DNA of 64,000 nt from an uncultured Latescibacterota bacterium (GCA_958295785.1 OY282377.1:3328385-3392384), one strand, 5' to 3'. Positions 1 to 17,470 are shown, counted from the first letter of the stretch. The notes: generated by a model not told the origin, from the sequence alone. Numbers and translations: made by a program.

Positions 1-1105
1 CGCCGACGTGTTGGGCATCCCCTTTGATTTTACGGCAAAGCCCGTCGTTGCCCCGCCGCAGAAGCCGCGAGCGACCATTCAGGTAAAAGCCATACGCCCC
101 GAACGAGACGCGCTCGAAATTCGCTTTCCGCGCGTGGCCGGGTATCGCGTGGCATTGCCCCAAGAGCGACTTCGCGCCGCGTTTCATGAAGACGCGACAT
201 TGGTACTCACGCCCGATCTCGTGGGGCCATCGCGCACGCGCAACCAAGGAATCATCGGCGAGGGCGTCGATCTCACGCTGGTTCACACCAACAACCTGCG
301 GCACGCGACCCTGCTCTTTCACCTGACCAAGCGGTTGCTCTACACAAAGTGGCGCGATCCGGGCGAAGTGCCAAAGCTCCACCTGTTCGGCCAACTCAAA
401 CAGATCACGCGCCAGTGGCTGGACGACCACCTCGTTTGCAAGGGCGGCACGTACCCCGCGCAACTGATGTACCAGGAACTGGCCGACATCGCCTGCGAGC
501 GCATCACCGCCGCGATCACGCGCCACCACGCCGCCGAGCGTCCCGTTGAGGCCATGCTCGATTCCTACAACCCCTGTGGCTCCACCGCGCAGGTCAATTT
601 CAACACGTCCAAGACCCGGCGCTACGAAACCGATGCCCGGCGTTGCCACGTCAACTGGGTCGTCCTCGACAGCGACTGGGAAGCCGAGTTTTGCCGCGTT
701 GCCGAATCCCATCCGCGCGTCAAAGCCTACGTGAAAAACCACAATCTCGGCCTAGAAGTGCCCTATCGCACGGGTGCAGAGTCCCGCACCTACATCCCGG
801 ATTTCATCGTGCAGATCGACGATGGCAAGGGCGATGACGACCCGTTGCACCTGATCGTGGAGATCAAGGGCTATCGCGGCGAAGACGCAAAGGACAAGAA
901 GACCGCGATGGAAACCCATTGGGTTCCGGGCGTGAACCGCCTCCGCGATTACGGGCGCTGGGCCTTTGCCGAATTTACAGATGTTTACGAGATCGAATCC
1001 GCATTTGCCGATAGCGTGCGCCGGTTGGTCGCGAACCCGCAACTGACCGAGCTCGGAAATGAGGCCGCCGAAGGCTCTGCGGGCGGAGATACGACACTAC
1101 ATTGA
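1..1105 (+). CDS. Type III restriction endonuclease Res subunit, C-terminal part (5' end outside window); PD-(D/E)xK nuclease region
   Basis: ORF open to the window edge. C-terminal motifs YIPDFIV ... DDPLHLIVEIKGYRGED fit a PD..ExK endonuclease core as in Res C-termini. A Type III-like Mod lies on the same strand 3.8 kb downstream. Family assignment is from memory, not search. Confidence 0.5.
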   Translation, partial: ADVLGIPFDFTAKPVVAPPQKPRATIQVKAIRPERDALEIRFPRVAGYRVALPQERLRAAFHEDATLVLTPDLVGPSRTRNQGIIGEGVDLTLVHTNNLRHATLLFHLTKRLLYTKWRDPGEVPKLHLFGQLKQITRQWLDDHLVCKGGTYPAQLMYQELADIACERITAAITRHHAAERPVEAMLDSYNPCGSTAQVNFNTSKTRRYETDARRCHVNWVVLDSDWEAEFCRVAESHPRVKAYVKNHNLGLEVPYRTGAESRTYIPDFIVQIDDGKGDDDPLHLIVEIKGYRGEDAKDKKTAMETHWVPGVNRLRDYGRWAFAEFTDVYEIESAFADSVRRLVANPQLTELGNEAAEGSAGGDTTLH

Positions 1106-3110: not shown

Positions 3111-3590
3111 ATGGCTACAATGACCTTTGATACCTACGCCTTTGTCAAGGAACTGGTTCAGGCCGGAATGCCTGAAGAACAGGCTGAGGTGCTGGCGCGT
3201 TCACAAGCGGCGTTGATTGCTGAAAAATTGGCGACCAAGCAGGATTTGAAAGAACTGGAATTGTGTGTGAAACGCGACCTGAAAGAACTGGAAGTGCGAT
3301 TGAAACGCGATATGAAGGAGATGGAATTGCGTCTGAAGCACGATATCCAGAAATTGGAACGCGATATGAAGGAGATGGAAGCCAATTTGAAACGCGATAT
3401 GAAGGAGATGGAAGCCAATTTGAAACGCGATATGAAGGAGATGGAATTGCGTCTGAAACGCGATATCCAAAAATTGGAACGCGACATGAAGGAGATGGAA
3501 TTGCGTCTGAAGCACGATTTGACCTTGCGTCTCGGCTCCATGATGGTCGTCGCTATCGGCGTAGTCGCTGCGCTGGTGAAACTCCTATAA
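3111..3590 (+). CDS. DUF1640-like tail-anchored coiled-coil protein with 11-residue (33-bp) repeats, copy 1
   Basis: RBS GGAGG. N-terminus MATMTFDTYAFVKELVQAGMPEEQAEV..LATKQDL resembles DUF1640 (from memory). Hendecad repeats LKRDMKEMExx follow. C-terminal hydrophobic anchor MMVVAIGVVAALVKLL. Confidence 0.6.
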   Translation: MATMTFDTYAFVKELVQAGMPEEQAEVLARSQAALIAEKLATKQDLKELELCVKRDLKELEVRLKRDMKEMELRLKHDIQKLERDMKEMEANLKRDMKEMEANLKRDMKEMELRLKRDIQKLERDMKEMELRLKHDLTLRLGSMMVVAIGVVAALVKLL

Positions 3591-4190: not shown

Positions 4191-4757
4191 ATGGCTACAA
4201 TGACCTTTGATACCTACGCCTTTGTCAAGGAACTGGTTCAGGCCGGAATGCCTGAAGAACAGGCTGAGGTGCTGGCGCGTTCACAAGCGGCGTTGATTGC
4301 TGAAAAATTGGCGACCAAGCAGGATTTGAAAGAACTGGAATTGTGTGTGAAACGCGACCTGAAAGAACTGGAAGTGCGATTGAAACGCGATATGAAGGAG
4401 ATGGAAGCCAATTTGAAACGCGATATGAAGGAGATGGAATTGCATCTGAAGCACGATATCCAGAAATTGGAACACGACATGAAGGAGATGGAAGCCAATT
4501 TGAAACGCGATATGAAGGAGATGGAATTGCGTCTGAAGCACGATATCCAGAAATTGGAACACGACATGAAGGAGATGGAAGCCAATTTGAAACGCGATAT
4601 GAAGGAGATGGAATTGCGTCTGAAACGCGATATCCAAAAATTGGAACGCGACATGAAGGAGATGGAATTGCGTCTGAAGCACGATTTGACCTTGCGTCTC
4701 GGCTCCATGATGGTCGTCGCTATCGGCGTAGTCGCTGCGCTGGTGAAACTCCTATAA
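4191..4757 (+). CDS. DUF1640-like tail-anchored coiled-coil protein, copy 2 (29 aa longer through extra hendecad repeats)
   Basis: Same N- and C-termini as 3111..3590. The internal repeat count is expanded. Confidence 0.6.
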   Translation: MATMTFDTYAFVKELVQAGMPEEQAEVLARSQAALIAEKLATKQDLKELELCVKRDLKELEVRLKRDMKEMEANLKRDMKEMELHLKHDIQKLEHDMKEMEANLKRDMKEMELRLKHDIQKLEHDMKEMEANLKRDMKEMELRLKRDIQKLERDMKEMELRLKHDLTLRLGSMMVVAIGVVAALVKLL

Positions 4758-4887: not shown

Positions 4888-7800
4888 ATGGCGAAACGAT
4901 CAAGAACGCCCAAATCCGTTGAGACCCTCACGCACGGCGACGCGACGCGCAAGAATATTCCCACCGCCGAGTATCAGCCCGTGATGCGAGCGGAGGATCA
5001 GGCCCCAATCCGCGTCGCATATCAGCGGCGCAACCGCGATCTCGATCCGCAACTCGTTTGGCGCGGCAAGGACGAGCAAGATTGGTCGGACCTCGTTGTG
5101 CCCGCGCCGCCGCTTTTCATTCAGGAAAAGGTGCATCCGAAAGTGCTGATCGACGATCTGTTGCGCCAAAGCGCGGAGACAGCCACCACCGCGCCGGGGT
5201 TCCAGCCCGATTTGTTCGCCGACTTCAACGGCCTGCCCGACCCAAGCGCGGCGACCGAGTTCTACCAGCACGACGCCAACTGGTCGAACCGCATGATCCT
5301 CGGCGACAGCCTGCAAGTGATGGCCTCCCTGGCCGAGCGTGAGGGCCTGCGCGGTCAAGTGCAGTGCATCTATATTGACCCGCCCTACGGCATCAAGTTC
5401 AATTCCAATTTCCAATGGTCCACCACCAGCCGCGACGTGCGAGACGGCAAGCGCGAGCACATCACGCGAGAGCCTGAGCAGGTGAAAGCGTTTCGGGATA
5501 CGTGGCGCGATGGCATCCATTCCTACCTGACCTACCTGCGCGACCGCCTGACCGTAGCGCGGGATTTGTTGACCGAGAGCGGTTCGGTGTTTGTGCAGAT
5601 CGGCGATGAAAATGTCCATCGGGTGCGGGCGTTGATGGATGAGGTGTTTGGGGATGAGAATTTTGTCGGGGAGATTATTTTTAAAACCCGTAGCACATCT
5701 ACCAGCAAAAATCTGTCTGCGTTGAATGATTACATCATATGGTATTGTAAAGATATTAATGCACTAAAATTCCGTCAATTTTACATGCAGAAAAGTGCTG
5801 ACAGGGCGCGTTTCAATTTTGCCGATATTGATGGCGAAATTTTCAGTGTCAATGAAAAAAATATCAATATCGGAAGCGTTAAGTATTTCTCAAGTAGTAG
5901 TCTGTTCTCAACAAGCGGCGGAGACGCTTCCCGGATTCCCTTTGAGTTCTGTGGGAAAAAATATACCCCGGCAATCTCTCGTGGATGGCGATGCTCACTT
6001 GATGGGCTATTACGCCTTACCTATGCAAGCCGTATATTCAACCAAGGTAATTCTATCCGCTATAAATACTTTCACGCCGATTTCCCATTCGTCGAGGGCG
6101 GGAATCTATGGGATGATCAAATGTCCGAGCAAAACAAATCTTATGTGGTGCAAACATCTCCAAGACCCATTGAACGCTGCATCCTCATGACCACCGACCC
6201 TGGCGACCTCGTTCTCGATCCCACCTGCGGATCTGGCACAACCGCTTATGTCGCCGAGCAATGGGGCAGGCGGTGGATCACCATTGACACCAGCCGAGTC
6301 GCGCTCGCGTTGGCGCGTGCCCGCATCATGGGGGCGCGCTATCCCTACTACCTCCTCTCGGACAGCGCGGAGGGGCAGCGCAAGGAAGCGGAAATCAGCC
6401 GCACCGCGCCATCGGAAACGCCCGCATACAACGACATCCGCCAAGGCTTTGTGTATCAGCGCGTGCCGCACATCACCCTGCGCGACATCGCCAACAACGC
6501 GGAAATCGACATCATTTGGGAGAAATATCAGAAAACGCTCAAATCGCTTCGGGCATCGCTCAACAAGGCGGTGAACGAGGATTGGCGGGAATGGGAAATC
6601 CCGCGCGAAGCCGACGAATCGTGGTCGGACGCGGTCAAGGCATTGCACGGCCAATGGTGGGAACAGCGCATCGCACGGCAAACAGAGATCGACGCGTCTA
6701 TCGCGGCGAAAGCGGACTGCGAGTATCTCTACGACAAGCCCTACGAGGAGAGAAAGAAGGTGCGCGTCGCCGGCCCGTTCACGGTGGATAGCCTATCGCC
6801 GCACCGCGTTTTGGGCATCGATGAAAACGACGACCTCATCGACAGCGCGGCAGATCCCGAACTCGAGCACAGCGAATCGCAGGATTTTTCCGGGATGATT
6901 TTGGAGCACCTCAAAACCGCTGGCGTGCAACAGGCGCGCAAAGACGACCGCATCGCGTTTTCATCCCTCGCGCCGTGGCCGGGCGATTTGGTTTGCGCCG
7001 AAGGCACGTACGCCGAGGGCGACGCGGATTCTGGCATTTACAAACGCGCTGGCATTTTCATCGGCCCCGAGTTTGGCACGGTCTCGCGTCCCGATCTGGC
7101 GAGGGCCGTGCGCGAGGCGGGCGAGGCCGATTTCGATGTGCTCATCGCCTGCGCGTTCAACTACGACGCCCAATCCACGGATTTCGACAAACTGGGGCGC
7201 GTCCCGGTGCTCAAAGCGCGCATGAACGCGGATCTTCACATGGCCGACGACCTCAAGAACACGGGCAAGGGCAATCTGTTCGTGATTTTCGGCGAGCCTG
7301 ATATTTCAGTGGCGAGTGAAGAGTGGTTAGTGGATGGTTCAGAAAGGAGAATCGCGCCGTATGACATCTTTAAGCTCGTATCGGGAACGGATCGGCTGGC
7401 AGAAGTCAATAGACTTGACCGTGAGGAGTTACGCGCTCATGCGGCGCTTTCCCGCCGAGGGGAGATATGGGATTACCTCACAGATGCGGCGTGCCGCGTC
7501 CTCAATTCCGGCGAACATCGCGGAGGGACAGGCAAGGCGAACAACGAGGGAATTTCTCCAGTCGCTTGGCATTGCGCGGGGGTCTCGGGCGGAACTGGAG
7601 ACCTTTCTGACCTTATGCGAAAGGCTGGCACTGATACGGAGAGAGGCTTCCGAGAACTTGTTGGCAGACTGCGCCGAGATCAACAAAATGCTCAACGCGC
7701 TGATGAAATCACGCGCCACTCGCCACTAACCACTCGCCACTATACACAGGTCACTGTCCACGGCGTTGACGTCTTCCACCCCAACACCGGCGAGATTCGC

Positions 7801-8070
7801 AGCGATGACGCCGATGGAATCGCCTGTTGGTTCATCGACACGGACTATAACGAGGAGAGTTTTTTCGTGCGCCACGCCTACTTTCTCGGCGCGAGCGATC
7901 CGTACAAATCCCTCAAGACCACGCTCAAAGCCGAGATCGACCCAAACGCTTGGGCCACGCTGCACAGCGACACCTCGCGGCCGTTCGCCAAACCCAAATC
8001 CGGGCGCATCGCGGTCAAGGTGATCAACCACTTGGGCGACGAGGTGATGAAAGTGTTTCGGGTTTCATGA
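4888..8070 (+). CDS. mod: Type III-like Mod / beta-class N6-adenine DNA methyltransferase (1060 aa including a ~145-aa in-frame insertion)
   Basis: Motif IV IYIDPPYGIKFNS, then a low-GC TRD, then motif X/I SPRPIERCILMTTDPGDLVLDPTCGSGTT. Conserved C-terminal tail VHGVDVFHPNTGEI..IACWFIDTDYNEESFFVRHAYF..IAVKVINHLGDEVMKVFRV. Confidence 0.8.
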   Translation: MAKRSRTPKSVETLTHGDATRKNIPTAEYQPVMRAEDQAPIRVAYQRRNRDLDPQLVWRGKDEQDWSDLVVPAPPLFIQEKVHPKVLIDDLLRQSAETATTAPGFQPDLFADFNGLPDPSAATEFYQHDANWSNRMILGDSLQVMASLAEREGLRGQVQCIYIDPPYGIKFNSNFQWSTTSRDVRDGKREHITREPEQVKAFRDTWRDGIHSYLTYLRDRLTVARDLLTESGSVFVQIGDENVHRVRALMDEVFGDENFVGEIIFKTRSTSTSKNLSALNDYIIWYCKDINALKFRQFYMQKSADRARFNFADIDGEIFSVNEKNINIGSVKYFSSSSLFSTSGGDASRIPFEFCGKKYTPAISRGWRCSLDGLLRLTYASRIFNQGNSIRYKYFHADFPFVEGGNLWDDQMSEQNKSYVVQTSPRPIERCILMTTDPGDLVLDPTCGSGTTAYVAEQWGRRWITIDTSRVALALARARIMGARYPYYLLSDSAEGQRKEAEISRTAPSETPAYNDIRQGFVYQRVPHITLRDIANNAEIDIIWEKYQKTLKSLRASLNKAVNEDWREWEIPREADESWSDAVKALHGQWWEQRIARQTEIDASIAAKADCEYLYDKPYEERKKVRVAGPFTVDSLSPHRVLGIDENDDLIDSAADPELEHSESQDFSGMILEHLKTAGVQQARKDDRIAFSSLAPWPGDLVCAEGTYAEGDADSGIYKRAGIFIGPEFGTVSRPDLARAVREAGEADFDVLIACAFNYDAQSTDFDKLGRVPVLKARMNADLHMADDLKNTGKGNLFVIFGEPDISVASEEWLVDGSERRIAPYDIFKLVSGTDRLAEVNRLDREELRAHAALSRRGEIWDYLTDAACRVLNSGEHRGGTGKANNEGISPVAWHCAGVSGGTGDLSDLMRKAGTDTERGFRELVGRLRRDQQNAQRADEITRHSPLTTRHYTQVTVHGVDVFHPNTGEIRSDDADGIACWFIDTDYNEESFFVRHAYFLGASDPYKSLKTTLKAEIDPNAWATLHSDTSRPFAKPKSGRIAVKVINHLGDEVMKVFRVS
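7361..7729 (+). CDS. four-helix-bundle protein (23S rRNA intervening-sequence protein family) nested inside the mod ORF in another frame
   Basis: RBS AAAGGAGAA then ATG. Translation YRERIGWQKSIDLTVRSYALMRRFPAEGRYGITSQMRRAASSIPANIAEGQARRTTREFLQSLGIARGSRAELETFL matches the family hallmark IPANIAEG. Lies entirely within 4888..8070 in frame +2. Confidence 0.75.
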   Translation: MTSLSSYRERIGWQKSIDLTVRSYALMRRFPAEGRYGITSQMRRAASSIPANIAEGQARRTTREFLQSLGIARGSRAELETFLTLCERLALIRREASENLLADCAEINKMLNALMKSRATRH

Positions 8071-8100
8071 CCGCTTGAGACATCCATCAAAGGAGTTGCG

Positions 8101-8400
8101 ATGCTCAACACTGCGTTGGCCGTTGTGAAAAACGGCAAAATCGAAACGATAGAACACATTGCGTTGTCCGAAGGCCAAAAAGTGCTGGTAACTCTGTTGC
8201 CCGACGATGCGACTTTCTGGCAAGAAGTTAGCCAACAAACGCTGAAACGAATTTGGGACAACAAAGAGGACGATGTATATGCCCAATTAGACGTCGCCAA
8301 ACGCCGGGAACATGTGGCTCAGTTGAAGAATTCTTTCCAAAAAATGAGCCGCGATATGGGGCCTCGTAAATGGACGCGGGAAGATCTCCATGCCCGATAA
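8101..8400 (+). CDS. hypothetical protein with DUF104-like (AF2212-type antitoxin-like) N-terminus
   Basis: RBS AAAGGAG. N-terminus LAVVKNGKIETIEHIALSEGQKVLVTLLPDD resembles the DUF104 pattern. Confidence 0.45.
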   Translation: MLNTALAVVKNGKIETIEHIALSEGQKVLVTLLPDDATFWQEVSQQTLKRIWDNKEDDVYAQLDVAKRREHVAQLKNSFQKMSRDMGPRKWTREDLHAR

Positions 8401-8404
8401 AGAT

Positions 8405-8430
8405 AGGGAGGTCAAAGAAATTTGACCTCC
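8405..8430 (+). terminator. perfect hairpin gggaggtcaaa-gaaa-tttgacctccc after 8101..8400
   Basis: 11-bp stem with a GAAA loop. The 3' tail is A/T-rich. Confidence 0.4.
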
Positions 8431-8627
8431 CTAAATTATTGTAAAATATTTGGATGCGGAAAATTAAATCCAATGTTTGGATGTTGCGATATTAGAATTT
8501 TCAGATATATGTTGACGAATGAGATGGATTTTGATACATTTCGTAAAATTCGACATTCAACGAGAAGTATCTAAAATATCTTGTTGTAAGTGGTGGTTAT
8601 TTTCCAGTACAGACGCGAGAGGATATC

Positions 8628-9893
8628 ATGCTGACGCAACGCGAACTGGGGCAGCGGTTGAAGCGTGCGCGCGAGGCAATCGGGTTGACCCAACAGCAGG
8701 TTGCCGATAGCGTCGCGCTTACCCGCGTTGCAATTTCCCAAATCGAATCGGGACGACGGGCGGTCAGTTCATTTGAACTCCTGCATCTCTCGCGTCTTTA
8801 CGGGCGAGATATGGTCAGTTTTTTTGACGAAAATGCCCACATGCAGGAGGCGGAAAACGCACTGACTGTCCTGTTTCGCACGCATCCCGAACTGGTTCAA
8901 ACCCCTGCGTGCAGAGAAGCATTGCAACGGGCCGATGAGATATTCCGAGAATATCTCAATTTGAAAGCCCTTTTGGATTTGGATACAGAACAGAACCTGC
9001 CGCCTGTATATGCTTGTCCCGAACCGAGAAATGTTTGGGAAGCCATTCATAAGGGCGAGCGCGTCGCCGAGGCGGAACGCAGTCGTCTGGCGTTGGGGCA
9101 TGATCCCATCCGCGATATGACCGAGTTGGTGGAATCGCAGGGCATACCCATCATTGAAATCAATTTGGATGATCAGATATCTGGTCTCTTTATCGCCCAT
9201 ACAGAAACGCAGTTGTGCATCTTCGTCAACCGAGAACAACTCGGTAGGGCAAGGGCGCGAGTCGCATTTACTATCGCCCATGAATACGGTCACATCTTGC
9301 TTGACCGGGATAAAGTCAGTGCCATCAGCAGAATCTCAAACGAGCGCGATTTGTTTGAAGTGCGTGCGAATGCTTTTGCCGCCGCGTTTCTCATGCCGGA
9401 AGAAGGGGTGAGTCAATTTCTCAAAACCATCGGCAAAGGCGCGTCCAGCCGCGAAAAGCTGTTGGCCTATACCGTGCCCGACCTGCTCGTGGGGCATCAC
9501 CGCCGCTTGGCATCCACCCAAGTCCTCACGCTTTACGATGTCGTCAAGTTCTGCGCGTATTTTGGAACCAGCTTTGAAGCCGCCCTGTACAGATTGAGAA
9601 ACACAAAGTTTCTTTCCGAGGGATCATTTGATCAACTCTACGAACAAAAAGAAAAAGCGAGGAAAATTGGACAACATCTCAAAATAGAAGAAGGAAGGCG
9701 AGACCACCCCAGCAGTTTCGCGGTCAATTTCACGGGGCTGGCTATCGAAGCCTATCGGCGCGACAAAATCACGTACGACAAATTGGTCAATCTCGCAGCA
9801 CAAGTGAAATTTGATTCTGAGGTCATAGACGAAGTACTCTCCTGCATGGGACTGGAAAACAATCGCGAAGAAGCGATCTATCTTCCGGAGTGA
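8628..9893 (+). CDS. XRE-family HTH fused to an ImmA/IrrE-family (DUF955) metallopeptidase domain
   Basis: N-terminus LTQRELGQRLKRAREAIGLTQQQVADSVALTRVAISQIESGRR (HTH_XRE). HEYGHILLD supplies the HExxH motif, and ANAFAAAFLMPEEGV matches ImmA/IrrE. Confidence 0.7.
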   Translation: MLTQRELGQRLKRAREAIGLTQQQVADSVALTRVAISQIESGRRAVSSFELLHLSRLYGRDMVSFFDENAHMQEAENALTVLFRTHPELVQTPACREALQRADEIFREYLNLKALLDLDTEQNLPPVYACPEPRNVWEAIHKGERVAEAERSRLALGHDPIRDMTELVESQGIPIIEINLDDQISGLFIAHTETQLCIFVNREQLGRARARVAFTIAHEYGHILLDRDKVSAISRISNERDLFEVRANAFAAAFLMPEEGVSQFLKTIGKGASSREKLLAYTVPDLLVGHHRRLASTQVLTLYDVVKFCAYFGTSFEAALYRLRNTKFLSEGSFDQLYEQKEKARKIGQHLKIEEGRRDHPSSFAVNFTGLAIEAYRRDKITYDKLVNLAAQVKFDSEVIDEVLSCMGLENNREEAIYLPE

Positions 9894-9926
9894 TCTCGTG
9901 TAGAAAAAACAGAGAGCCAGTCATGC

Positions 9927-10418
9927 GTGATTACGGACGCAAATATTCTGATCAATTTTATCAAAATTGACCGTGTGGATATTCTCCAACACCTGCGAGT
10001 GTATACTTTTTACTTGCCCGAGGAAGTATATCGGGAAATCACATATCCAGCACAACGGCTCGTTTTAGATCGCGCCCTCAAAAATGGATGGCTGAAAAAA
10101 ATTGTGATAACGGATCAAAATGAATTGCGTTCTTATGCAAAATACAAACGACAAATGGGTGATGGAGAGGCCGCGTGTTTGGCGATTGCGATTTGTCGAA
10201 AGTGGCTCATGGCCTGCGATGAACAAAAAAAGAAACTGATTTCCAGAACAGTTTAGCATCATTTGGGAGCGGGCTATCTCCTGAATACACCGGGTATTTT
10301 GCTCAAGGCCATACGCGAGAGCATTCTCACTATATCACAAGCAGACGCAATCAAAAACACGTTGGCGCAGAACCGATTTGTCATGCCATTTGCCTCTTTC
10401 CAGAATTTTAGCGCACCA
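9927..10418 (+). pseudogene. PIN-domain (DUF3368-like VapC-type) nuclease gene interrupted by one in-frame TAG at 10254-10256
   Basis: GTG start. N-terminus ITDANILINF..DGEAACLAIAI is PIN-like. After the TAG the same frame continues HHLGAGYLLNTPGILLKAIRESIL..., a PIN C-terminus. Confidence 0.55.
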
Positions 10419-10513
10419 TAGCCCTGCTTCGAAAAAAAAGGCGTGAGGGTTTGTTTCCGCACGGCCTGTTACTCGGTCCAAAGCGATCAAATTTATGGCA
10501 TAAAAGAAATCCA

Positions 10514-10593
10514 TTCGCCAAACCCATATCCGGGCGCATCGCGGTCAAGGTGATCAACCACTTGGGCGACGAGGTGATGAAAGTGTTTCGGGT
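10514..10593 (+). repeat. direct repeat copy 2 of the mod 3' terminus (80 bp, 1 mismatch vs 7984-8063)
   Basis: ttcgccaaaccca[t]atccgggcgcatcgcggtcaaggtgatcaaccacttgggcgacgaggtgatgaaagtgtttcgggt matches the mod C-terminal coding sequence. Confidence 0.9.
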
Positions 10594-10611
10594 GTAAAGG
10601 AGTGGTAATTT

Positions 10612-13600
10612 ATGAATTTTCCAGACCAAAGCCATATTGACCGAGTCCGTGAAGCACTCTGGCAACGTTCAAGCGATGCGTCCGTCATGGTTGGGAGCGG
10701 TTTCAGCCGAAACGCCTTGAAATCCCGACCAGATGCAGACGACCCTCCAACATGGCGCGAAGTGACAAAAGCGGTATCCGATAAACTGTATTCCCAAGAC
10801 GACGGTAGCGATGTGATTTTGAGATCCTCGGCAACGGGCGACTTTTTGCAGTTGGCCCAAGAGTATGAGGCCGCGTTCGGACGCGGGGACCTGCATCTCT
10901 TTATCCAAAGGTTGATTCGGGACGACGATTTCAAGCCAGGTGATCTACATACGCGGTTGCTACGGCTTCCTTGGCGCGATGTCTTCACAACCAATTGGGA
11001 CACGCTTTTGGAACGGGCGTGTTCTTTTGTAGCTGATCGCGCCTACAGCGTTGTGAGAAACATGGATGAGATTTCGTTGGCTGATCAGCCTCGCATTATC
11101 AAACTGCACGGATCGCTTCCCGCACATTTCCCGCTGATTTTCACGGAAGAAGATTATCGAACTTATCCAAGGAAATTTGCTCCGTTCGTGAACACCGTTC
11201 AGCAAGCAATGATGGAAACAGTATTTTGTCTGATCGGCTTCTCGAGTGATGATCCAAATTTTTTGCAATGGTCGGGATGGGTTCGTGACAATCTGGGTGA
11301 ATCCGCCCCGAAGATATATTTGGCCGGATGGCTGGATTTGTCACCTCACAGGCGCAGGATGCTTGAAGACCGCAACATGGTTTCTATTGATCTTGCGCGT
11401 CATCCGCATGCGAACAAATGGCCGGAACACAAGCGACATCAATACGCAACCAATTGGATTTTGCATTCATTGGAACGTGGACGCCCATACGAAGTCACAG
11501 AGTGGCCTTCTCGATCAGAGCGGCAACTTCTACCAATACCGAAAGAACTTCAACCTGTTAAAGAAGTTGTTCCTGATGAACCAAGAGAGGAGATAGATGC
11601 GCCAGCGTGGCCTGGAAATGATTCGGGAAATTTATTAGAAAAGGTGAAGGAATGCCTCAAGATTTGGACGCATAACAGGAAAATCTATCCGGGTTGGTTA
11701 GCTACCCCCGCAAGTGCGCGACATTCCATGAGTTGGGACACCGAACAATGGGAATCACCGATTTTAAGCGTGCTTCCCAACTTTGCTCCAGTAGAACGCT
11801 TGAAAGCCATTCGGGAGTTGATGTGGCGCAGGGAAATCATGCTGGATCCGATCTCTAACGAACTTGAAACCGCCGCCCAAAAAATCTTGGAAGAGATAGA
11901 CTGCCAAGCTCGAACAATTGGGGGTGTTGCCGATACAAGCGTTAATTGGGCGGACATGCGGGAAACTTGGCGTACTGTCGCGCTCGTGCTCGTGACAGCA
12001 ACGAGATTTGAATTTGATGAAGACCTGTTTGAGGAACGGATTGCGGCACTGTCCCCTTTCCGTGACGATCATCCAGACATCGTTCAACGGATACATCACG
12101 AGCGTTGTCTATGGGCGGTTTATGCGCTCAATTTCGAGAAGTTGGAAGGCTTACTCAAGGATTGGAAAACTGAAAATTGTGATCCAGTCTGGATGATGAG
12201 AAAAGCCGCTATCCTTTTCGAAATAAATCAAAATGACGACGCAATTCAACTGATCAACCACGCGCTTTCGGCTATCCGTGAGAATCTTGGCGATAAACGT
12301 AGCTTAGCCGGTCCTTCCCGCGAGGGTTGGGCACTGTGGTTGGCACTGGCATTTGAAGAAGGATGGGGGGAACCAAATAAAAACCTTATTGACGCACCTC
12401 CAGCTTTCAGAAGATGGCAGGAGTTGGCATCGCTGAAATGTGATGCCTTCACAGAGAAACACTGGTACGCCGAAGCAATCAAAGGCAGTGAAGAAAAAAA
12501 AGAAAAACTGCCCTTCGACCTTGGTCAGGGGCAAGGGTATCACTTTCACCTATCCAATGCCGAATATGATCGATATATTGCAGCTTATCGTGCAATTCGT
12601 CTCTCTGAAGTAGCCGGGTTACCTCCATCTACTAGCAGTTTTGTCGTAGCTTCGGATATATTGAAACTTGCCGCCGATAGGCTAGCCATGACGAATCCAG
12701 AGATGACCGCACGTCTGATCCTTCGAGTTTTGAACTATGACGGGGACTCTATGCTCACGCATGTTCTTTCGCGTCCTCGGGTGGCCGCTATGCCAGTGGA
12801 CTCGGTGGAAAGGCTTATTCAGGTCTGTAACAATGCCATTGAATACGCGCTCCCTTGGATATCGGGTGGACGCAGGCATGCCATGTTCTGGATTGAACGA
12901 TTTCGCGTTGTCTTGGAAGTACTATCTCGGCTTGTTCTCCGATCTGATCCCGAAACGGCAGAAACTATTTTTGATAAAGCACTTGAATATTACCGAAATG
13001 ATCACATAGCTCAGTGCCGGCTTTTAGAAGGACCTGTCCAACATATTCTGAAACGTTCTTGGGAAACCTTACCTAAAGATCGCCAGACTGACCGCGTGCT
13101 CGATCTGTTGAATGCGCCTATTGTTGGTATAGACGGATTTACTGGATCTGAAGGCTACCCAGATCCCGGGAAATTGCTATATCACAGAAATCCTCTGCCC
13201 ATTCGCACGTCGGACAACGAGAACCACTGGCAAGAAATCATCAGTCTGAATGTGCGTGGTTTGAACGCTGGTGGGGAAGCGCGCAAACGAGCATCTGTCA
13301 GAATAGCCCAAATAGCCTCGAAAGGACGGCTGTCGGATGATGAGGAATCGCAAGTCGCTCAAGCACTTTGGAGCCAAGATCATACCAACCCCAATGATCT
13401 ACCGGGTGGAACTAATATCTATGAGTGGGTATTTCTTCTATTACCACAGCCGAAGCCAGGCCTTGCAGAAGAGCGTTTTCGTCGCAAATGGCTCAATACT
13501 GACAACCTCTCTCAAGGCGATGGGGCCGATTTGGATGAAATTCTCTCGCAAGTTGGTTCTGCGATTTCCGGACTAAAAGCTCACCAGCATCAGCTAACGC

Positions 13601-14415
13601 TTTCGGATAAAGAGAAGAACTATCTTGCAGACCTTGTCGGGCGGTGGGCAGAATGTCGACCGTTGCCAAAAATAGGGCACTTTCCAGATAATGAGCGCAT
13701 TCGTCTTGAGAATCGGGCCATTGATGGCCTGCTATTTATCCTATTGGCAGTGTCGATTCCAGAAACCACAGCTACAAAACTCTACAAAAAAGTTCAAGAC
13801 CTAAAAGAATCTGACACGCCAGGGCTGAGGCTTATCGCCAGCATTGTTAAGGCATTGCCCGATCAGGTTGATGAAATCGCTTTGTTTGTAAGAATGGAAT
13901 TGACATCTGATAATAAAGGCTGGGCCGGGAATGCTACACGGGGATTAAATTTTTGGTTAGAGGCTGCGTCCGATTCAACGCTCGGCATACAGCCTCCACC
14001 TGATGACTTGGTTCATGAAATTGGCATCGTAATCGCTACCCGTAGAAAAGTAGTTCTCAAACAGGCATTGGAGATAGCAAAATGGGTATTTGAGGAAGGA
14101 AGTGAGGAACAGAGAGAAGTCATTAGCCAGTTGACGATACAGGGGCTGGGTTATCTGATTGAGGAATTGCGATACGACAGAGAGCACGATCAGGATAATG
14201 ACTTTGATGTGCCGTTTTTGCGCTGGGTCTGCACACATCTTGCCTTAGCAATGGCGGAGCATGGCTTGGCCGACGACCCGACTGTTGCTCGCTGGCTGGA
14301 GATTGCCAAAGAAGACCCGCTCCCGGAAGTGCGGCAGGCAAAGCATTCCGCTTTTGCTCGTCAGCATAAGGAGAAGGAAAGCACGGGCGAAGAGCCAATG
14401 TCTCAAGCCGAGTAA
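10612..14415 (+). CDS. SIR2-like (SIR2_2/DSR-type) NADase-domain protein with ~950-aa alpha-helical C-terminal region; defence-associated sirtuin-like
   Basis: RBS AAAGGAG. N-terminal motifs VMVGSGFSRN, FTTNWDTLLE, IIKLHGS, LIGFSSDDPNF match the SIR2_2 family. Size and architecture resemble DSR1/DSR2. Confidence 0.65.
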   Translation: MNFPDQSHIDRVREALWQRSSDASVMVGSGFSRNALKSRPDADDPPTWREVTKAVSDKLYSQDDGSDVILRSSATGDFLQLAQEYEAAFGRGDLHLFIQRLIRDDDFKPGDLHTRLLRLPWRDVFTTNWDTLLERACSFVADRAYSVVRNMDEISLADQPRIIKLHGSLPAHFPLIFTEEDYRTYPRKFAPFVNTVQQAMMETVFCLIGFSSDDPNFLQWSGWVRDNLGESAPKIYLAGWLDLSPHRRRMLEDRNMVSIDLARHPHANKWPEHKRHQYATNWILHSLERGRPYEVTEWPSRSERQLLPIPKELQPVKEVVPDEPREEIDAPAWPGNDSGNLLEKVKECLKIWTHNRKIYPGWLATPASARHSMSWDTEQWESPILSVLPNFAPVERLKAIRELMWRREIMLDPISNELETAAQKILEEIDCQARTIGGVADTSVNWADMRETWRTVALVLVTATRFEFDEDLFEERIAALSPFRDDHPDIVQRIHHERCLWAVYALNFEKLEGLLKDWKTENCDPVWMMRKAAILFEINQNDDAIQLINHALSAIRENLGDKRSLAGPSREGWALWLALAFEEGWGEPNKNLIDAPPAFRRWQELASLKCDAFTEKHWYAEAIKGSEEKKEKLPFDLGQGQGYHFHLSNAEYDRYIAAYRAIRLSEVAGLPPSTSSFVVASDILKLAADRLAMTNPEMTARLILRVLNYDGDSMLTHVLSRPRVAAMPVDSVERLIQVCNNAIEYALPWISGGRRHAMFWIERFRVVLEVLSRLVLRSDPETAETIFDKALEYYRNDHIAQCRLLEGPVQHILKRSWETLPKDRQTDRVLDLLNAPIVGIDGFTGSEGYPDPGKLLYHRNPLPIRTSDNENHWQEIISLNVRGLNAGGEARKRASVRIAQIASKGRLSDDEESQVAQALWSQDHTNPNDLPGGTNIYEWVFLLLPQPKPGLAEERFRRKWLNTDNLSQGDGADLDEILSQVGSAISGLKAHQHQLTLSDKEKNYLADLVGRWAECRPLPKIGHFPDNERIRLENRAIDGLLFILLAVSIPETTATKLYKKVQDLKESDTPGLRLIASIVKALPDQVDEIALFVRMELTSDNKGWAGNATRGLNFWLEAASDSTLGIQPPPDDLVHEIGIVIATRRKVVLKQALEIAKWVFEEGSEEQREVISQLTIQGLGYLIEELRYDREHDQDNDFDVPFLRWVCTHLALAMAEHGLADDPTVARWLEIAKEDPLPEVRQAKHSAFARQHKEKESTGEEPMSQAE

Positions 14416-14501
14416 ATTGATAGAACCAACGATAGGCAGGCGAGAGGCAATGGCCCTGAAAAATTTTATGTACTGAACGGTATTGCCGTACACATTGCGA
14501 T

Positions 14502-14792
14502 ATGATCATTCGTTCTGTTCGACACAGGGGATTGCGCCAGCTGATAGAACACGACAATCCCCAATTCCTGCAACGCGACTTGGTTGACCGAGTACGCAAG
14601 ATATTGACGGCACTGATCTTGGCTGAGGATTTGGACAGTTTTATCGCCGATGCCCCTCAAGGCTGGCGCGTCCACCGTCTCTCAGGTAACCGTCAAGACG
14701 CCTGGAGCATTTCGATATCTGGCAATTGGCGGATCACGTTTGAAGAAGATACGGGCTATATTGACCGCTTAAACTTGGAGGATTACCACTGA
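14502..14792 (+). CDS. higB: HigB-type RelE/ParE-family toxin
   Basis: MIIRSVRHRGLRQLIEHDN ... GNRQDAWSISISGNWRITFEEDTGYIDRLNLEDYH matches the HigB killer-protein family. Toxin sits upstream of antitoxin, as expected. Confidence 0.7.
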   Translation: MIIRSVRHRGLRQLIEHDNPQFLQRDLVDRVRKILTALILAEDLDSFIADAPQGWRVHRLSGNRQDAWSISISGNWRITFEEDTGYIDRLNLEDYH

Positions 14793-15097
14793 TGGCAACC
14801 GATGGCCTCACAGTGACCATGACCCCTTCGCATCCGGGCGACTTCATTCGCACAGAGGTCATTGAGGAGTTGGGGGTAAGTGTGACGCGGGCAGCCGAGA
14901 TTCTGGGGGTTCGTCAAGCGACGCTTTCGGAGGTGCTAAACGGCCATGCCGCGCTATCGCCGGAAATGGCCCTACGCATCGAAAAGGCATTTGATATCAG
15001 CATGGATATGCTACTGCGAATGCAGGCTTGGTATGACGCCTCGCAAATGCGCGCCCGGGCAAATGAGATCGAGGTTCAACGGTACGCGTCCGCTTGA
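14792..15097 (+). CDS. higA: HigA antitoxin (XRE HTH)
   Basis: PSHPGDFIRTEVIEELGVSVTRAAEILGVRQATLSEVLNGHAALSPEMALRIEKAF matches HigA. Its start overlaps the higB stop (TGATG). Confidence 0.7.
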   Translation: MATDGLTVTMTPSHPGDFIRTEVIEELGVSVTRAAEILGVRQATLSEVLNGHAALSPEMALRIEKAFDISMDMLLRMQAWYDASQMRARANEIEVQRYASA

Positions 15098-15109
15098 TAG
15101 ATAGAGGCA

Positions 15110-15140
15110 GTGATGAAAGTATTTCGCGTTTCATGACCGC
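15110..15140 (+). repeat. direct repeat copy 3 of the mod 3' terminus plus 11 bp of native downstream flank (31 bp, 2 mismatches vs 8044-8074)
   Basis: gtgatgaaagtAtttcgCgtttcatgaccgc versus native gtgatgaaagtgtttcgggtttcatgaccgc. Confidence 0.75.
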
Positions 15141-15398
15141 ACTCGTGCGAGCGCATTGTGCGACTCTCCTTGGAACAATCGGTTTAGACATGTTTAGATG
15201 ATTTAGCCACAAAAGGCACACAGATGCTGTTACATAAAATGTTTCGCATGTAAGGGCACTGCGACGAAAGGCAGTGTCATCCATGAAAAAAAATGAAGAT
15301 TGGAGAGAGCTAAAGCGGAAAATTGATCGGGTCAAGCGCGATGTTTTCAACAGAAACCACTTGACACATCCTTGAGTGTGCGATACATTTTAAAACAT

Positions 15399-16488
15399 AG
15401 GACTTACGCAATTTTCATTGGAATATGAGGTGCTTTGAGTTGTTGTCTCAAGAAGTCAGCCACCCCCCGGTATTTGACTTGATAAATGGTTTGTCCTGTT
15501 TGATAGGCCACCTGCGCGAGTCTTATCCAAACGAACATCGCACACCCAATATGATTTCGTACCATGCGTGCCAACCGACATTGACACTTTTCAAGCCCGG
15601 TTACCTGTTTGACTTCGCGGTGAAATTGCTCAATTTTCCATCTTTGGTGACACACCTGTTGTACCCCTGAAGAATCGTTTTGAGCATGGTCGTTCGTTAC
15701 GACATACGCCGTGCGTCTGGCAGCAGACGCCACCCGGAATAATTTCACTTTGTGGTCTTTGGGGAACCCTCTGATTTTAATTAGCTTGCCTTGTTTGCGC
15801 TCCGCTTGAGTCCAAGTTAAGCTATCTACGCGCTGGTAGGGGGTTGTGCCTGCCGAATCGTCCACGCGCCGGTTCGTCTTGAGGGGACAATAATAGGTTT
15901 TTTGCATCTGCTCTATGTGTAGCATGACTGTTTTGGTCGCATACCAACTGTCCATCAAGACCCCGGTAAAAGGGAGGCCCTTCTGATAGACCAACCCAGA
16001 GAGCATGTCCTTGAGATGATCCCATTTGGTTTTGCCATCGCCTTGCGGGTCATAAATCCGATAGTCAATCAGCCAGAACCGATCCTGTTGCGGATGGACA
16101 TAGACACATGTGACCACCCCAATGCCGTTGATGACGCCTTGGGCGTTGCCGCTCTATTGACGGCGCACTCACGCGATCTTGCGTGCGTGTCGCTTGTCTA
16201 AAACCGTGTCATCAAAGATCACATAGCCTTTGGGCGTCAACGCGATGTGGTCTTTGACGTGTTCCCACACCAAGCGGGGAGGGATACGATCACCGGCGAG
16301 ATAGCGGTTGATCATATCATGACTGAACCCTTCGCTATGGTCGGCGAAATGGGTCAGGGTATAGTTGAGGGGACTGCTAAGCAGATACTGACAGTAATCC
16401 AAACGCGTCGGGTGGCGCATTGACACCTCCTCAAAGTGATAAATTTTACGGAATTGCACCCTTTGTTAACTCAGCATGCGTAAGTCCT
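15399..16488 (-). mobile_element. IS701-like (IS4/IS5 superfamily) insertion sequence, ~1090 bp, 12-bp terminal inverted repeats, 7-bp TSD AAAACAT
   Basis: Left inverted repeat (IRL) aggacttacgca at 15399-15410 and right inverted repeat (IRR) tgcgtaagtcct at 16477-16488. AAAACAT at 15392-15398 and 16489-16495. The element encloses a DDE transposase. Confidence 0.65.
15404..16459 (-). pseudogene. IS701-family DDE transposase with two in-frame stops (TGA 16169-16171, TAG 16154-16156)
   Basis: N-terminal part ..IFDDTVLDKRHARKIA* and C-terminal part ..DSWYA..QRWKIEQFHREVK (R-x3-E-x6-K signature) share one frame. The stops fall where the IS701 consensus GVxRQYSGTxGK has Gly (TGA) and Tyr (TAG). 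Confidence 0.65.
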
Positions 16489-16556
16489 AAAACATAGAGA
16501 TATAAACCTTTCTGTTCGCAAGAAATTGTAAGCGCACGGAAAGAGAGGGAAGGATA

Positions 16557-17043: not shown

Positions 17044-17470
17044 ATGAATTTCAACACCACCACATTTCGCCAATTGATGGGCAATGGCCTGAGTGATCGC
17101 GTGCCCCAGTTCCAACGCGATTATTCATGGGGCACGGACGAATGGGACGACCTGTGGCAGGACATGGTCGGGCTGTTTGGCGAAGACCCGGACCCGCGCA
17201 TTACATGGGCTACTCGGTGTTGCAATCGCCCGACAACCGAGCGTTCGACATTCTCGACGCGAGGCGTTCACCTATTTGGCAACAGCGGACAATCGCACGT
17301 TGGGAAAGACCGGCTTCTCAGAAAAGCGTCCTGTTTATCAAAAAAGCCAATTCGCCATCACTCGCAAATCAGCAGAAAACTGCGACACTTGGACGACCGA
17401 CAAAATTCGTTCACATCAGAACTGGATGGGCGAACGGGCATCTGGCGCGTCAATTTCTGAACCGACCTCA
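17044..17470 (+). pseudogene. DUF262 (GmrSD/ParB-like nuclease N-terminal domain) gene remnant, frameshifted and truncated
   Basis: NFNTTTFRQLMGNGLSDRVPQFQRDYSWGTDEWDDLWQDM matches the DUF262 N-terminal motif. The continuation (..ILDARRSPIWQQRT ~ DGQQRLT) appears only in other frames. Overlapping 3-frame ORFs signal decay. Confidence 0.5.

Follow-up and report, generated by a model that had tools for sequence, protein, structure and literature searches.

A divergent DSR2-family defence sirtuin in a variable cassette array behind a type III mod gene of an uncultured Latescibacterota bacterium

Within a stretch of 64,000 nucleotides from an uncultured Latescibacterota bacterium (GCA_958295785.1 OY282377.1:3328385-3392384), in the following called the window, we identified a gene for a large SIR2 protein which, judged by its sequence, is a new member of the already known single-gene DSR2 defence family and most likely represents a phage-triggered NADase that aborts infection. 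Taken as a whole, we consider it very probable that the gene encodes a DSR2-family single-protein abortive-infection sirtuin, that it constitutes one unit of a variable array at the end of a mod gene, and that the HigBA module next to it is an independent neighbour. The SIR2 NADase is presumably kept inactive until the C-terminal solenoid binds a phage-made protein, whereupon the activated sirtuin would hydrolyse the cellular NAD+ and halt phage replication. The gene itself is best read as a swappable unit behind the 3' end of the type III mod gene, without a fixed place in the chromosome. The features of the region are compiled in Table 1.

Table 1. Features of the sirtuin region (positions counted from the first letter of the window).
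Feature	Position	Strand	Evidence and remarks
3' part of type III restriction gene res, cut by the left end of the window	8..1105	+	Similarity to the L204 ResIII gene
Type III DNA methyltransferase gene mod, 1060 aa, array anchor	4888..8070	+	PADLOC MTase_III PDLC03632, 1343 bits; Pfam N6_N4_Mtase, E=7e-33
mod 3' end, reference repeat copy	7981..8074	+	Repeat search, families D3 and D4; alignment of all copies
Cassette 1: orf99, HTH + M78-peptidase gene, DUF3368/PIN-like gene	8101..10421	+	Pfam, PADLOC
Second mod-end copy, 83 nt, 98% identical to 7981-8063	10511..10593	+	Repeat search; stop codon retained, followed by the sirtuin ribosome-binding site
DSR2-family defence sirtuin gene, 1267 aa	10612..14415	+	PADLOC Dsr2 and NCBIfam NF041819 matches
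SIR2 NADase domain (residues 1-300), catalytic Asn128 and His166	10612..11511	+	Alignment to 8wkt_A and 6lhx
All-helical HEAT-like solenoid, presumed sensor (residues ~340-1245)	11629..14346	+	AlphaFold model
higB toxin gene, 96 aa	14502..14792	+	Pfam PF05015 HigB-like_toxin, 36.4 bits (cut-off 27)
higA antitoxin gene, 101 aa	14792..15097	+	TIGR02607, 89.6 bits (cut-off 47.7); Pfam HTH_3
Third mod-end copy, 31 nt, 94% identical	15110..15140	+	Stop codon and 7 nt beyond included
IS element with DDE_Tnp_1 transposase, within old mod-downstream DNA	15393..16496	-	Terminal inverted repeats; Pfam on identical L202 genes; flanks contiguous in L204

The sirtuin ORF begins with ATG, is open across all 1267 codons and is preceded by an AAGGAG ribosome-binding site (10598-10603), which is located 8 nt ahead of the start codon. 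The initial annotation had proposed a canonical SIR2_2 N-terminus, and all four motifs quoted for it were found, namely GSGFS at residue 28, TTNWD at residue 126, IIKLHGS at residue 162, and GFSSDDPNF at residue 209. The Pfam scan assigned residues 124-256 to SIR2_2 with 67 bits (cut-off 24.5) and yielded no further domain above cut-off. Over nearly its entire length the protein is matched by the Dsr2 models of PADLOC (PDLC02184; E=5e-187; residues 7-1231 corresponding to model positions 11-1205 of 1222) and NCBIfam (NF041819; 635.5 bits; residues 7-1232). The latter score falls far short of the equivalog cut-off of 1400 bits, so that the protein is a homologue, not an orthologue-grade match, and belongs to a divergent Dsr2 clade. 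A DSR1 identity was ruled out, since the PADLOC matches at E<=0.01 did not include the Dsr1 model. The size of the ORF, together with more than 4000 homologues in the databases, argues that it is not a chance feature. The clade occurs mainly in genomes of uncultured Nitrospirales, Latescibacterota, Dehalococcoidia, and Gemmatimonadota, and the homologues as a whole are patchily distributed across phyla, including one archaeon, and bound to islands. A search for an expression signal gave none above chance, and a search of the published literature retrieved no experimental work on this DSR2 clade. The sirtuin extends a family already covered by PADLOC and NCBIfam by a divergent clade from uncultured lineages.

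DSR2 of Bacillus subtilis 29R (1005 aa; PDB 8k98, 8wy8, and others) is a tail-tube-activated, DSAD1-inhibited tetrameric NADase and, to our knowledge, the only DSR2 that has been studied mechanistically. Mutation of its residues N133/H171 removes both defence and NADase activity (bioRxiv 10.1101/2021.12.14.472415; PMC10981675). In the alignment with this protein (8wkt_A), these residues pair with N128/H166 of the window sirtuin. Among 71 aligned homologues His166 is invariant and Asn128 occurs in at least 90%, and every residue that is invariant in this set is retained in the window protein. The modelled SIR2 part superimposes on SIR2-only DSR2 chains with TM values of 0.72-0.76, and the SIR2 domain is 76% identical among homologues compared to 57-58% for the helical region. 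An NADase activity, an oligomeric state and a phage-protein trigger like those of the B. subtilis enzyme may be assumed by analogy. The end-to-end Dsr2 matches, the two catalytic residues and the location in a defence island of low GC content bear out the proposal of a DSR-like defence sirtuin. Of the two objections that the initial annotation had itself named, a loss of the catalytic residues is contradicted by the alignment, and a housekeeping deacylase of the CobB/Sir2 type was ruled out because the domain is SIR2_2 and not classical SIR2, the protein comprises 1267 residues, the gene is missing at the corresponding locus of a related strain (L202), and its distribution is patchy.

The C-terminal part had been described as a helical region of about 950 residues resembling that of DSR2. 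The first half of this description holds, as the structure models predict an all-helical fold from about residue 333-340 to about residue 1245. The likeness to the tail-tube-sensing domain could not be recovered, neither by profile nor with the model of the C-terminal part alone. The family profile aligned to B. subtilis DSR2 exclusively in the SIR2 part (residues 44-227), and Foldseek with the C-terminal AlphaFold model (938 residues; pLDDT 84.7, pTM 0.85) returned generic HEAT-type solenoids only (karyopherins, SF3B1, CAND1), with B. subtilis DSR2 absent from the best 50 matches. With the full-length model (pLDDT 80.9), the best 43 PDB matches were all full-length B. subtilis DSR2 chains (E 6e-12 to 9e-9, TM 0.42-0.52). 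Since neither the profile nor the C-terminal model showed a likeness in this part, tail-tube recognition cannot be transferred to the window protein, which probably responds to another phage protein. The interest of the sirtuin lies mainly in this departure of its sensor region from that of the one DSR2 that has been studied.

The gene is embedded in an island with a GC content of 0.48-0.50 compared to 0.55-0.60 in the core genome. The cassette array is anchored by mod, in which an in-frame insert of 426 nt (about 7305-7746) is present. Upstream, window positions 1-1040 share 92% identity with the terminal part of a ResIII-domain gene (1007 aa) of the related strain L204, and res homologues lie upstream of mod in seven DSR2 loci. 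As had been claimed, the sirtuin directly follows a repeat of the mod end, its ORF starting 18 nt past the second mod-end copy, and the same junction occurs in L001, L002, L003, L037, and L065. The DNA to the right of the third copy adjoins mod directly in L204. Cassette 1, situated between mod and the second copy, contains an RmrA-like gene (8628-9893; PADLOC RmrA E=7e-33, Pfam HTH_3 and Peptidase_M78) and a DUF3368/PIN-like gene (9927-10421) that is interrupted by a nonsense mutation at 10254; L202 has an intact 174-aa copy of the latter gene. A GmrSD remnant is also found among the decaying neighbour genes. Mod-end copies flank DSR2 in six further genomes (L002, L004, L005, L006, L008, and L037), where all of them terminate at the mod stop codon. 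The copies comprise the last 30-190 nt of mod and separate defence cassettes, a pattern seen in several phyla; the other units found between them encode AAA_15/AAA_21 ATPases, SIR2 with HerA, FRG-TPR, DUF4435, Schlafen, and a subtilase with an AAA protein. When 67 loci of this mod family were sampled without bias, a further mod-end copy turned up in only about three and DSR2 in none, which indicates that the array is lineage-restricted.

Comparison with three close relatives showed that this position holds a different cargo in each of them. L202 is 99.7% identical to the window rightwards of position 14355 and has an identical HigBA, but DSR2 is reduced to its last ~70 nt, which follow a unit of Transgly and DUF4238 genes. 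In L204, window positions 10468-14671 are missing in a clean deletion that comprises DSR2 and the 5' end of higB. L001 carries DSR2 at 87.7% nucleotide identity, followed by just the first 21 nt of higB. Between close strains, units are gained, replaced and deleted, for which recombination at the mod-end copies or close to them is the simplest route. Such a comparison makes the turnover of defence genes directly visible, which is rarely possible.

The same comparison bears on the role of HigBA. The predicted HigB/HigA pair was found behind the sirtuin, in toxin-first order and with a 1-nt overlap, both genes scoring above curated cut-offs. The initial annotation went further and regarded the sirtuin and the addiction module as one co-delivered cassette; on such a reading the module would stabilise the defence gene. 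It is true that both are enclosed by the second and the third mod-end copy and that the junction of DSR2 3' end, spacer and higB is common to the window, L001, and L202, with the L204 deletion being compatible with the same junction; this suggests that the pair has travelled together for some time, with HigBA as a long-standing neighbour of this DSR2 allele. However, HigBA lies downstream of DSR2 in none of 80 other DSR2 loci (in two it is located ~3.5 kb upstream), and in six genomes a mod-end copy follows 17-43 nt after DSR2, so that the unit there is DSR2 alone. Moreover, DSR2 was lost twice with HigA retained (L202, L204) and HigBA once with DSR2 retained (L001). These independent losses imply that the toxin–antitoxin neighbour demonstrably did not shield the sirtuin from loss, and we consider a common cassette unlikely. 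From the locus comparison HigBA is an adjacent, separable neighbour and not a conserved partner, presumably functionally independent and not needed by the sirtuin, and its position beside DSR2 is lineage-specific.

Given that two related strains have lost DSR2 and that its neighbours are decaying (nonsense mutation in the DUF3368 gene, GmrSD remnant, IS insertion), the sirtuin might be viewed as a pseudogene in waiting or, alternatively, as a regulatory deacylase without a defence role. We regard this as highly improbable, because the frame is intact over 1267 codons, the residues invariant in 71 homologues are all kept, the Pfam family is the defence-type SIR2_2 and not classical SIR2, and the spread over phyla is patchy and island-bound.

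Clustering of the neighbours of 82 DSR2 loci yielded no family present in more than 10 of them, the recurring ones being restriction-modification enzymes of four types, and DSR2 is predicted to work as a single gene without a conserved partner. A restriction-modification gene (type III, type ISP, type I, or MmeI-type) was located within 4 kb in 35 of the 82 loci, mostly upstream and on the same strand, and in L002, L003, L037, L065, and L072 the DSR2 start codon, on the mod strand, is no more than ~45 nt away from the mod stop codon. These figures would fit a sirtuin that is coupled to restriction-modification and fires as a back-up when a phage disables Mod/Res, similar to PrrC with EcoprrI, its helical region sensing the state of the complex instead of a phage structural protein. 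However, the nearby systems belong to four unrelated enzyme classes, which favours co-location in islands over a specific protein partner, and more than half of the loci lack such a gene in their vicinity. In the window, mod and DSR2 are kept apart by 2.5 kb belonging to another cassette, unrelated genes replace DSR2 at the same site in related strains, and B. subtilis DSR2 acts without a partner (bioRxiv 10.1101/2021.12.14.472415). We thus assign only a small chance to such a coupling and retain the single-protein defence sirtuin as the preferred reading.

As for the array, the mod-end copies might be working exchange sites instead of scars. Every defence cassette, including DSR2, would bring along a short mod-end piece of its own, with which it could loop out and re-insert by recombination behind any related mod gene. 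A widespread type III methyltransferase gene would thereby act as an integrase-free landing pad, and defence genes would pass between bacteria of different phyla living side by side. Three observations agree with such a mechanism: the right boundary is identical in all mod-end copies, Nitrospirales and Latescibacterota share the left boundary (76 nt) behind DSR2, and in L002 and L037 the copies are more similar within a genome (93-96%) than between the genomes (89%). We nevertheless put it forward as a tentative proposal that is somewhat doubtful at present. If it were true, defence genes would have a simple, homology-based way of spreading among the phyla of a common habitat.

In relation to known systems, the window sirtuin is closest to the Dsr2 family defined by Gao et al. 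(2020, as cited in bioRxiv 10.1101/2021.12.14.472415), whose models (1215-1222 positions) are similar to it in length and match it end to end. Both share the N-terminal SIR2 domain, a helical remainder without any other recognisable domain, the single-gene organisation, and the occurrence in defence islands. With B. subtilis DSR2 it shares the plan of SIR2, helical middle region and HEAT-like solenoid, but it is ~260 residues longer and the sequence and profile similarity stops at the SIR2 domain. The closest SIR2 domain by sequence is that of ThsA from Thoeris (PDB 6lhx, 7uxt; E=1e-10 to 5e-12). A ThsA identity was nevertheless rejected, as the ThsA models match the SIR2 part only (residues 66-236) and the protein has a solenoid C-terminus and no SLOG/Macro domain; likewise, no gene for a TIR-domain ThsB is present near the sirtuin, the neighbours being the HTH-M78 protein, DUF3368, and HigBA. 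The HigBA pair, with its toxin-first order, overlapping genes and scores above curated cut-offs, shows nothing unusual compared to known type II modules of this kind.

An integron cassette array was dismissed, since the Pfam assignments of all called genes in L202 and L204 contain DDE transposases but no integrase, no attC-like element is seen among the annotated neighbours, and the repeats are coding fragments with variable left ends. A literature search retrieved no description of an array of cassettes bounded by mod 3' ends. Like defence-island hotspots and integron-like arrays, the array in the window lines up strain-variable, repeat-bounded defence units in a row at one site, but it differs from them in that its repeat consists of the end of a protein-coding gene (the 3' end of mod), with a right edge fixed at the stop codon and a variable left edge.

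The sirtuin gene of the window is a DSR2-family defence gene (hereafter DSR2) with a HigBA toxin-antitoxin pair adjoining it. Of more interest than this call is the result that DSR2 is one unit of an array of swappable defence units at the 3' end of a type III methyltransferase gene, mod. The initial annotation had placed a repeat of mod directly before the sirtuin gene and a HigB/HigA pair after it, and both were confirmed, whereby higB precedes higA in the toxin-first order that is typical of HigBA. Read from the left, mod is followed by orf99, an RmrA-like HTH-M78 gene and a DUF3368/PIN-like gene up to the second mod end, by DSR2, HigB and HigA up to the third, and then by older DNA that is interrupted by an IS element and continues with ArsC and a decayed GmrSD gene. 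The DSR2 stretch, with a GC content of 0.48-0.50, is bordered by the mod gene (0.54-0.58) and core genes (0.55-0.60). A search for promoters and terminators in 7900-15450 yielded the same counts as shuffled controls.

Features of the DSR2 locus (window positions)
Feature	Position	Strand	Remarks
Type III res gene, end	8-1105		left of DSR2
Type III mod gene	4888-8070	+	1060 aa; left of DSR2
Mod-end copy 2	10511-10593		98% identical to last 83 nt of mod (7981-8063); directly before DSR2
DSR2 ORF	10612-14415	+	1267 open codons
higB	14502-14792		score over curated threshold; 86-nt spacer after DSR2
higA	14792-15097		score over curated threshold
Mod-end copy 3	15110-15140		repeats last 31 nt of mod (8044-8074); directly after higA
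IS element	15393-16496	-	DDE_Tnp_1 transposase split over two ORFs (15404-16117, 16169-16459)

Eighty genomic loci with DSR2 homologues were fetched, together with one metagenomic contig. At about 12 loci (L001-L009, L037, L065, L072), from Nitrospirales, Latescibacterota, Gemmatimonadota, Thermoanaerobaculia and unclassified bacteria, DSR2 lies after the same large type III mod gene or a copy of the end of this gene. The distance from the mod stop codon to the DSR2 start is at most about 45 nt in L002, L003, L037, L065 and L072, and a mod-end copy follows DSR2 by 17-43 nt in L002, L004, L005, L006, L008 and L037, being 76 nt long in five of these six. Every copy has its right edge at the mod stop codon, while the left edges vary, giving lengths from about 20 to 190 nt. 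Additional copies bound additional units, which comprise AAA_15/AAA_21 ATPases with small partner genes, SIR2 plus HerA, an FRG-TPR protein, an AAA_21 ATPase with DUF4435, DUF6602 plus an AAA protein and a subtilase, and Schlafen/AlbA_2 proteins, all of them of the sort usually met in defence islands. The two copies inside each of the genomes L002 and L037 are 93-96% identical, compared with 89% for equivalent copies between the two, which points to continuing recombination or a recent duplication. On a Gemmatimonadota contig (L007, 2-3607) a SIR2 plus HerA pair stands downstream of a mod-end copy and ahead of DSR2, so that two different SIR2-based systems are stacked in one array. An unbiased search of metagenome contigs with the mod-end pattern gave 67 mod-family loci with at least 1.5 kb of downstream DNA, of which only about three carried an extra mod-end copy and none DSR2; the phenomenon is thus restricted. 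A literature search yielded nothing specific on arrays anchored at the mod 3' end, and the arrangement may be undescribed.

Three close relatives are decisive for the link between DSR2 and HigBA. L202 (5.63-Mb contig) is 99.7% identical to the window from 14355 rightwards, with identical HigB and HigA, and shares the RmrA-like/DUF3368 unit and the 83-nt mod-end copy (98.3% identity). Between this copy and HigBA it carries Transgly, DUF4238, a small ORF and then a DSR2 remnant, namely only the last ~70 nt, encoding ARQHKEKESTGDEPMSQAE and the stop. L204 (5.48-Mb contig), at 84-92% identity to the window, lacks exactly 10468-14671. The missing piece takes in the 83-nt copy, the whole of DSR2 and 170 nt from the start of higB; higA is still present, followed by a mod-end copy of 107 nt and a Schlafen gene. 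In the third relative, L001, the 76-nt copy, DSR2 and the spacer are all present, at 87.7% identity, and are followed by only the first 21 nt of higB. The DSR2-higB junction is therefore old among these few relatives. The initial annotation had regarded the sirtuin and the addiction module as a single co-delivered cassette. This was not supported: HigBA was found downstream of DSR2 at none of the 80 other loci (a pair lies about 3.5 kb upstream in two of them), and DSR2 was lost twice with HigA kept (L202, L204) and HigBA once with DSR2 kept (L001). The two modules can be separated, and the sirtuin was lost in spite of the toxin-antitoxin pair.

Two models are consistent with the formation of the array. 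In the first, a circle consisting of a cassette and a mod-end piece would integrate by homologous recombination into the resident mod end, which would leave the cassette between direct repeats, and the reverse reaction would release it; in favour of this are the copy behind DSR2, constant at 76 nt in two phyla, and the high identity of copies within a genome. In the second, incoming DNA would replace resident genes with the right-hand join near the end of the resident gene, whereby the scar would be retained because it carries signals for the next gene; the ~70-nt DSR2 remnant in L202 favours such replacement. The third copy of the window marks the original junction, since the DNA after it directly follows mod in L204. 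No integrase is annotated near the arrays of L202 and L204. An integron was rejected as an explanation, as there is no integrase and the left ends of the repeats vary. Direct repeats of flanking DNA (40-430 nt) also bracket DSR2 homologues in other contexts, e.g., beside type I or type ISP genes (L017, L023, L032, L045, L050, L064, L075, L078); these repeats hint that insertion with target duplication might be general for the DSR2 gene.

Clustering of the neighbours within 4 kb at 82 DSR2 loci revealed no conserved partner, with no neighbour family occurring at over 10 loci. Those found repeatedly were type III mod and type ISP (10 loci each), type I HsdR (9), Schlafen (8), HsdM and MmeI-type enzymes (4 each). 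A restriction-modification gene is near DSR2 in 35 of the 82, which fits co-location in islands and not a specific protein partnership. Mod and DSR2 as a fixed two-gene system was likewise rejected, given the absence of DSR2 from the 67 mod-family loci, its position next to four different restriction enzyme classes and its exchange for other genes in the sister strains.

Several further elements were observed around the array. Within mod, in another reading frame, lies a gene for a 23S-rRNA-intervening-sequence protein (ORF 7334-7729; four-helix bundle, PF05635, Pfam E=1e-34). The insert (7305-7746) is flanked by 26-nt inverted repeats (7308-7333, 7716-7741), which pair into a long terminal stem when the RNA is folded (z = -2.8), and the mod frame is open throughout its 426 nt. 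It is also present in L037 and missing from most mod homologues, whose alignments leave out residues 813-953. The insert has the look of an rRNA-type intervening sequence that has come to lie within a protein-coding gene. Between res and mod, a ClpP/S49-type peptidase gene (1188-2252) precedes two paralogous genes (3111-3590, 4191-4757) for coiled-coil proteins with a C-terminal membrane helix; both are made of 33-nt and 54-nt tandem repeats in differing number (repeats 4327-4689), giving a peptide repeat of the form LKRDMKEMEx. Just past orf99, a perfect 13-bp hairpin (TAGGGAGGTCAAA/TTTGACCTCCCTA, 8404-8433) has a terminator-like score on both strands. In the first cassette, the DUF3368/PIN-like gene (9927-10421) has a C-to-T change at 10254 that creates a stop codon (CAA to TAA) relative to the intact 174-aa gene of L202; thus, the likely toxin/effector of the RmrA-like pair is truncated in the window. 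The IS element, with terminal inverted repeats AAAACATAGGACTTACGC and GCGTAAGTCCTAAAACAT, cuts a Transgly-type gene, of which just the first ~30 codons are left (15284-15376). In L204 the sequences on either side of it are joined, which makes it a recent insertion into DNA that at first lay behind mod. The decayed GmrSD/DUF262-type gene (17044-17470) is intact for about 60 N-terminal codons before its frame is broken, and was probably another array unit, because an intact homologue in L004 begins right after a mod-end copy.

DSR2 itself is preceded by an AAGGAG ribosome-binding site 8 nt ahead of its start. The DSR-type assignment made from the sequence was borne out by the Dsr2 models of PADLOC (residues 7-1231 against model positions 11-1205 of 1222, E=5e-187) and NCBIfam (635 bits over residues 7-1232). 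Since 635 bits is well under the equivalog cut-off of 1400 of the latter, the protein belongs to a divergent clade of the family and is not the characterised orthologue. The PADLOC Dsr1 models gave no match, and matches to the PADLOC models for ThsA, LmuA and Argonaute-associated SIR2 were confined to the SIR2 domain. All four SIR2 motifs quoted initially were found (GSGFS at residue 28, TTNWD at 126, IIKLHGS at 162, GFSSDDPNF at 209), and Pfam placed SIR2_2 on residues 124-256. More than 4000 homologues are present in the protein database, and the best 120 are mostly ~1200-1300 residues long with 53-83% identity. Identity of homologues to DSR2 is 76% in the SIR2 domain versus 57-58% in the helical region, which fits a conserved effector fused to a sensor that evolves faster.

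Alignment with the B. subtilis DSR2 chain 8wkt_A, whose numbering is one below that of the full protein, equated Asn128 with N133 and His166 with H171; ThsA His152 also aligns with His166. B. subtilis DSR2 loses both defence and NADase activity when N133 or H171 is mutated (bioRxiv 10.1101/2021.12.14.472415; PMC10981675). His166 is present in all of 71 aligned homologues and Asn128 in at least 90% of them. As both residues are aligned and conserved, the objection that catalytic residues might be absent falls away. The analysis shows that the protein belongs to the family, that its active site is intact and that it consists of a SIR2 domain plus a solenoid. An AlphaFold model of residues 1-1200 (71 sequences, mean pLDDT 80.9) retrieved full-length B. 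subtilis DSR2 chains as all of its top 43 PDB matches (E 6e-12 to 9e-9), with TM scores of 0.42-0.52 over the target, and matched SIR2-only chains at 0.72-0.76. The initial annotation had also likened the C-terminal region to the DSR2 sensor, in B. subtilis a HEAT-like C-terminal domain (residues 548-1005) that captures the tail tube protein by its D1 domain (PMC11850899). This analogy was not supported: residues 330-1267 modelled alone formed an all-helical solenoid (pLDDT 84.7, pTM 0.85) whose best matches were generic solenoids (karyopherins, SF3B1, CAND1; TM 0.15-0.32), B. subtilis DSR2 was absent from the top 50 matches of this 938-residue model, and the family profile, run against PDB, aligned with B. 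subtilis DSR2 over residues 44-227 only, not beyond the SIR2 domain and no better than to ThsA. Beyond SIR2, the modelled protein therefore appears to resemble B. subtilis DSR2 in plan and not in detail. By analogy with B. subtilis DSR2, it would be kept inactive, a newly made phage protein would bind the solenoid, the SIR2 domains would then hydrolyse NAD+ to ADP-ribose and nicotinamide, and the infected cell would cease to support phage growth.
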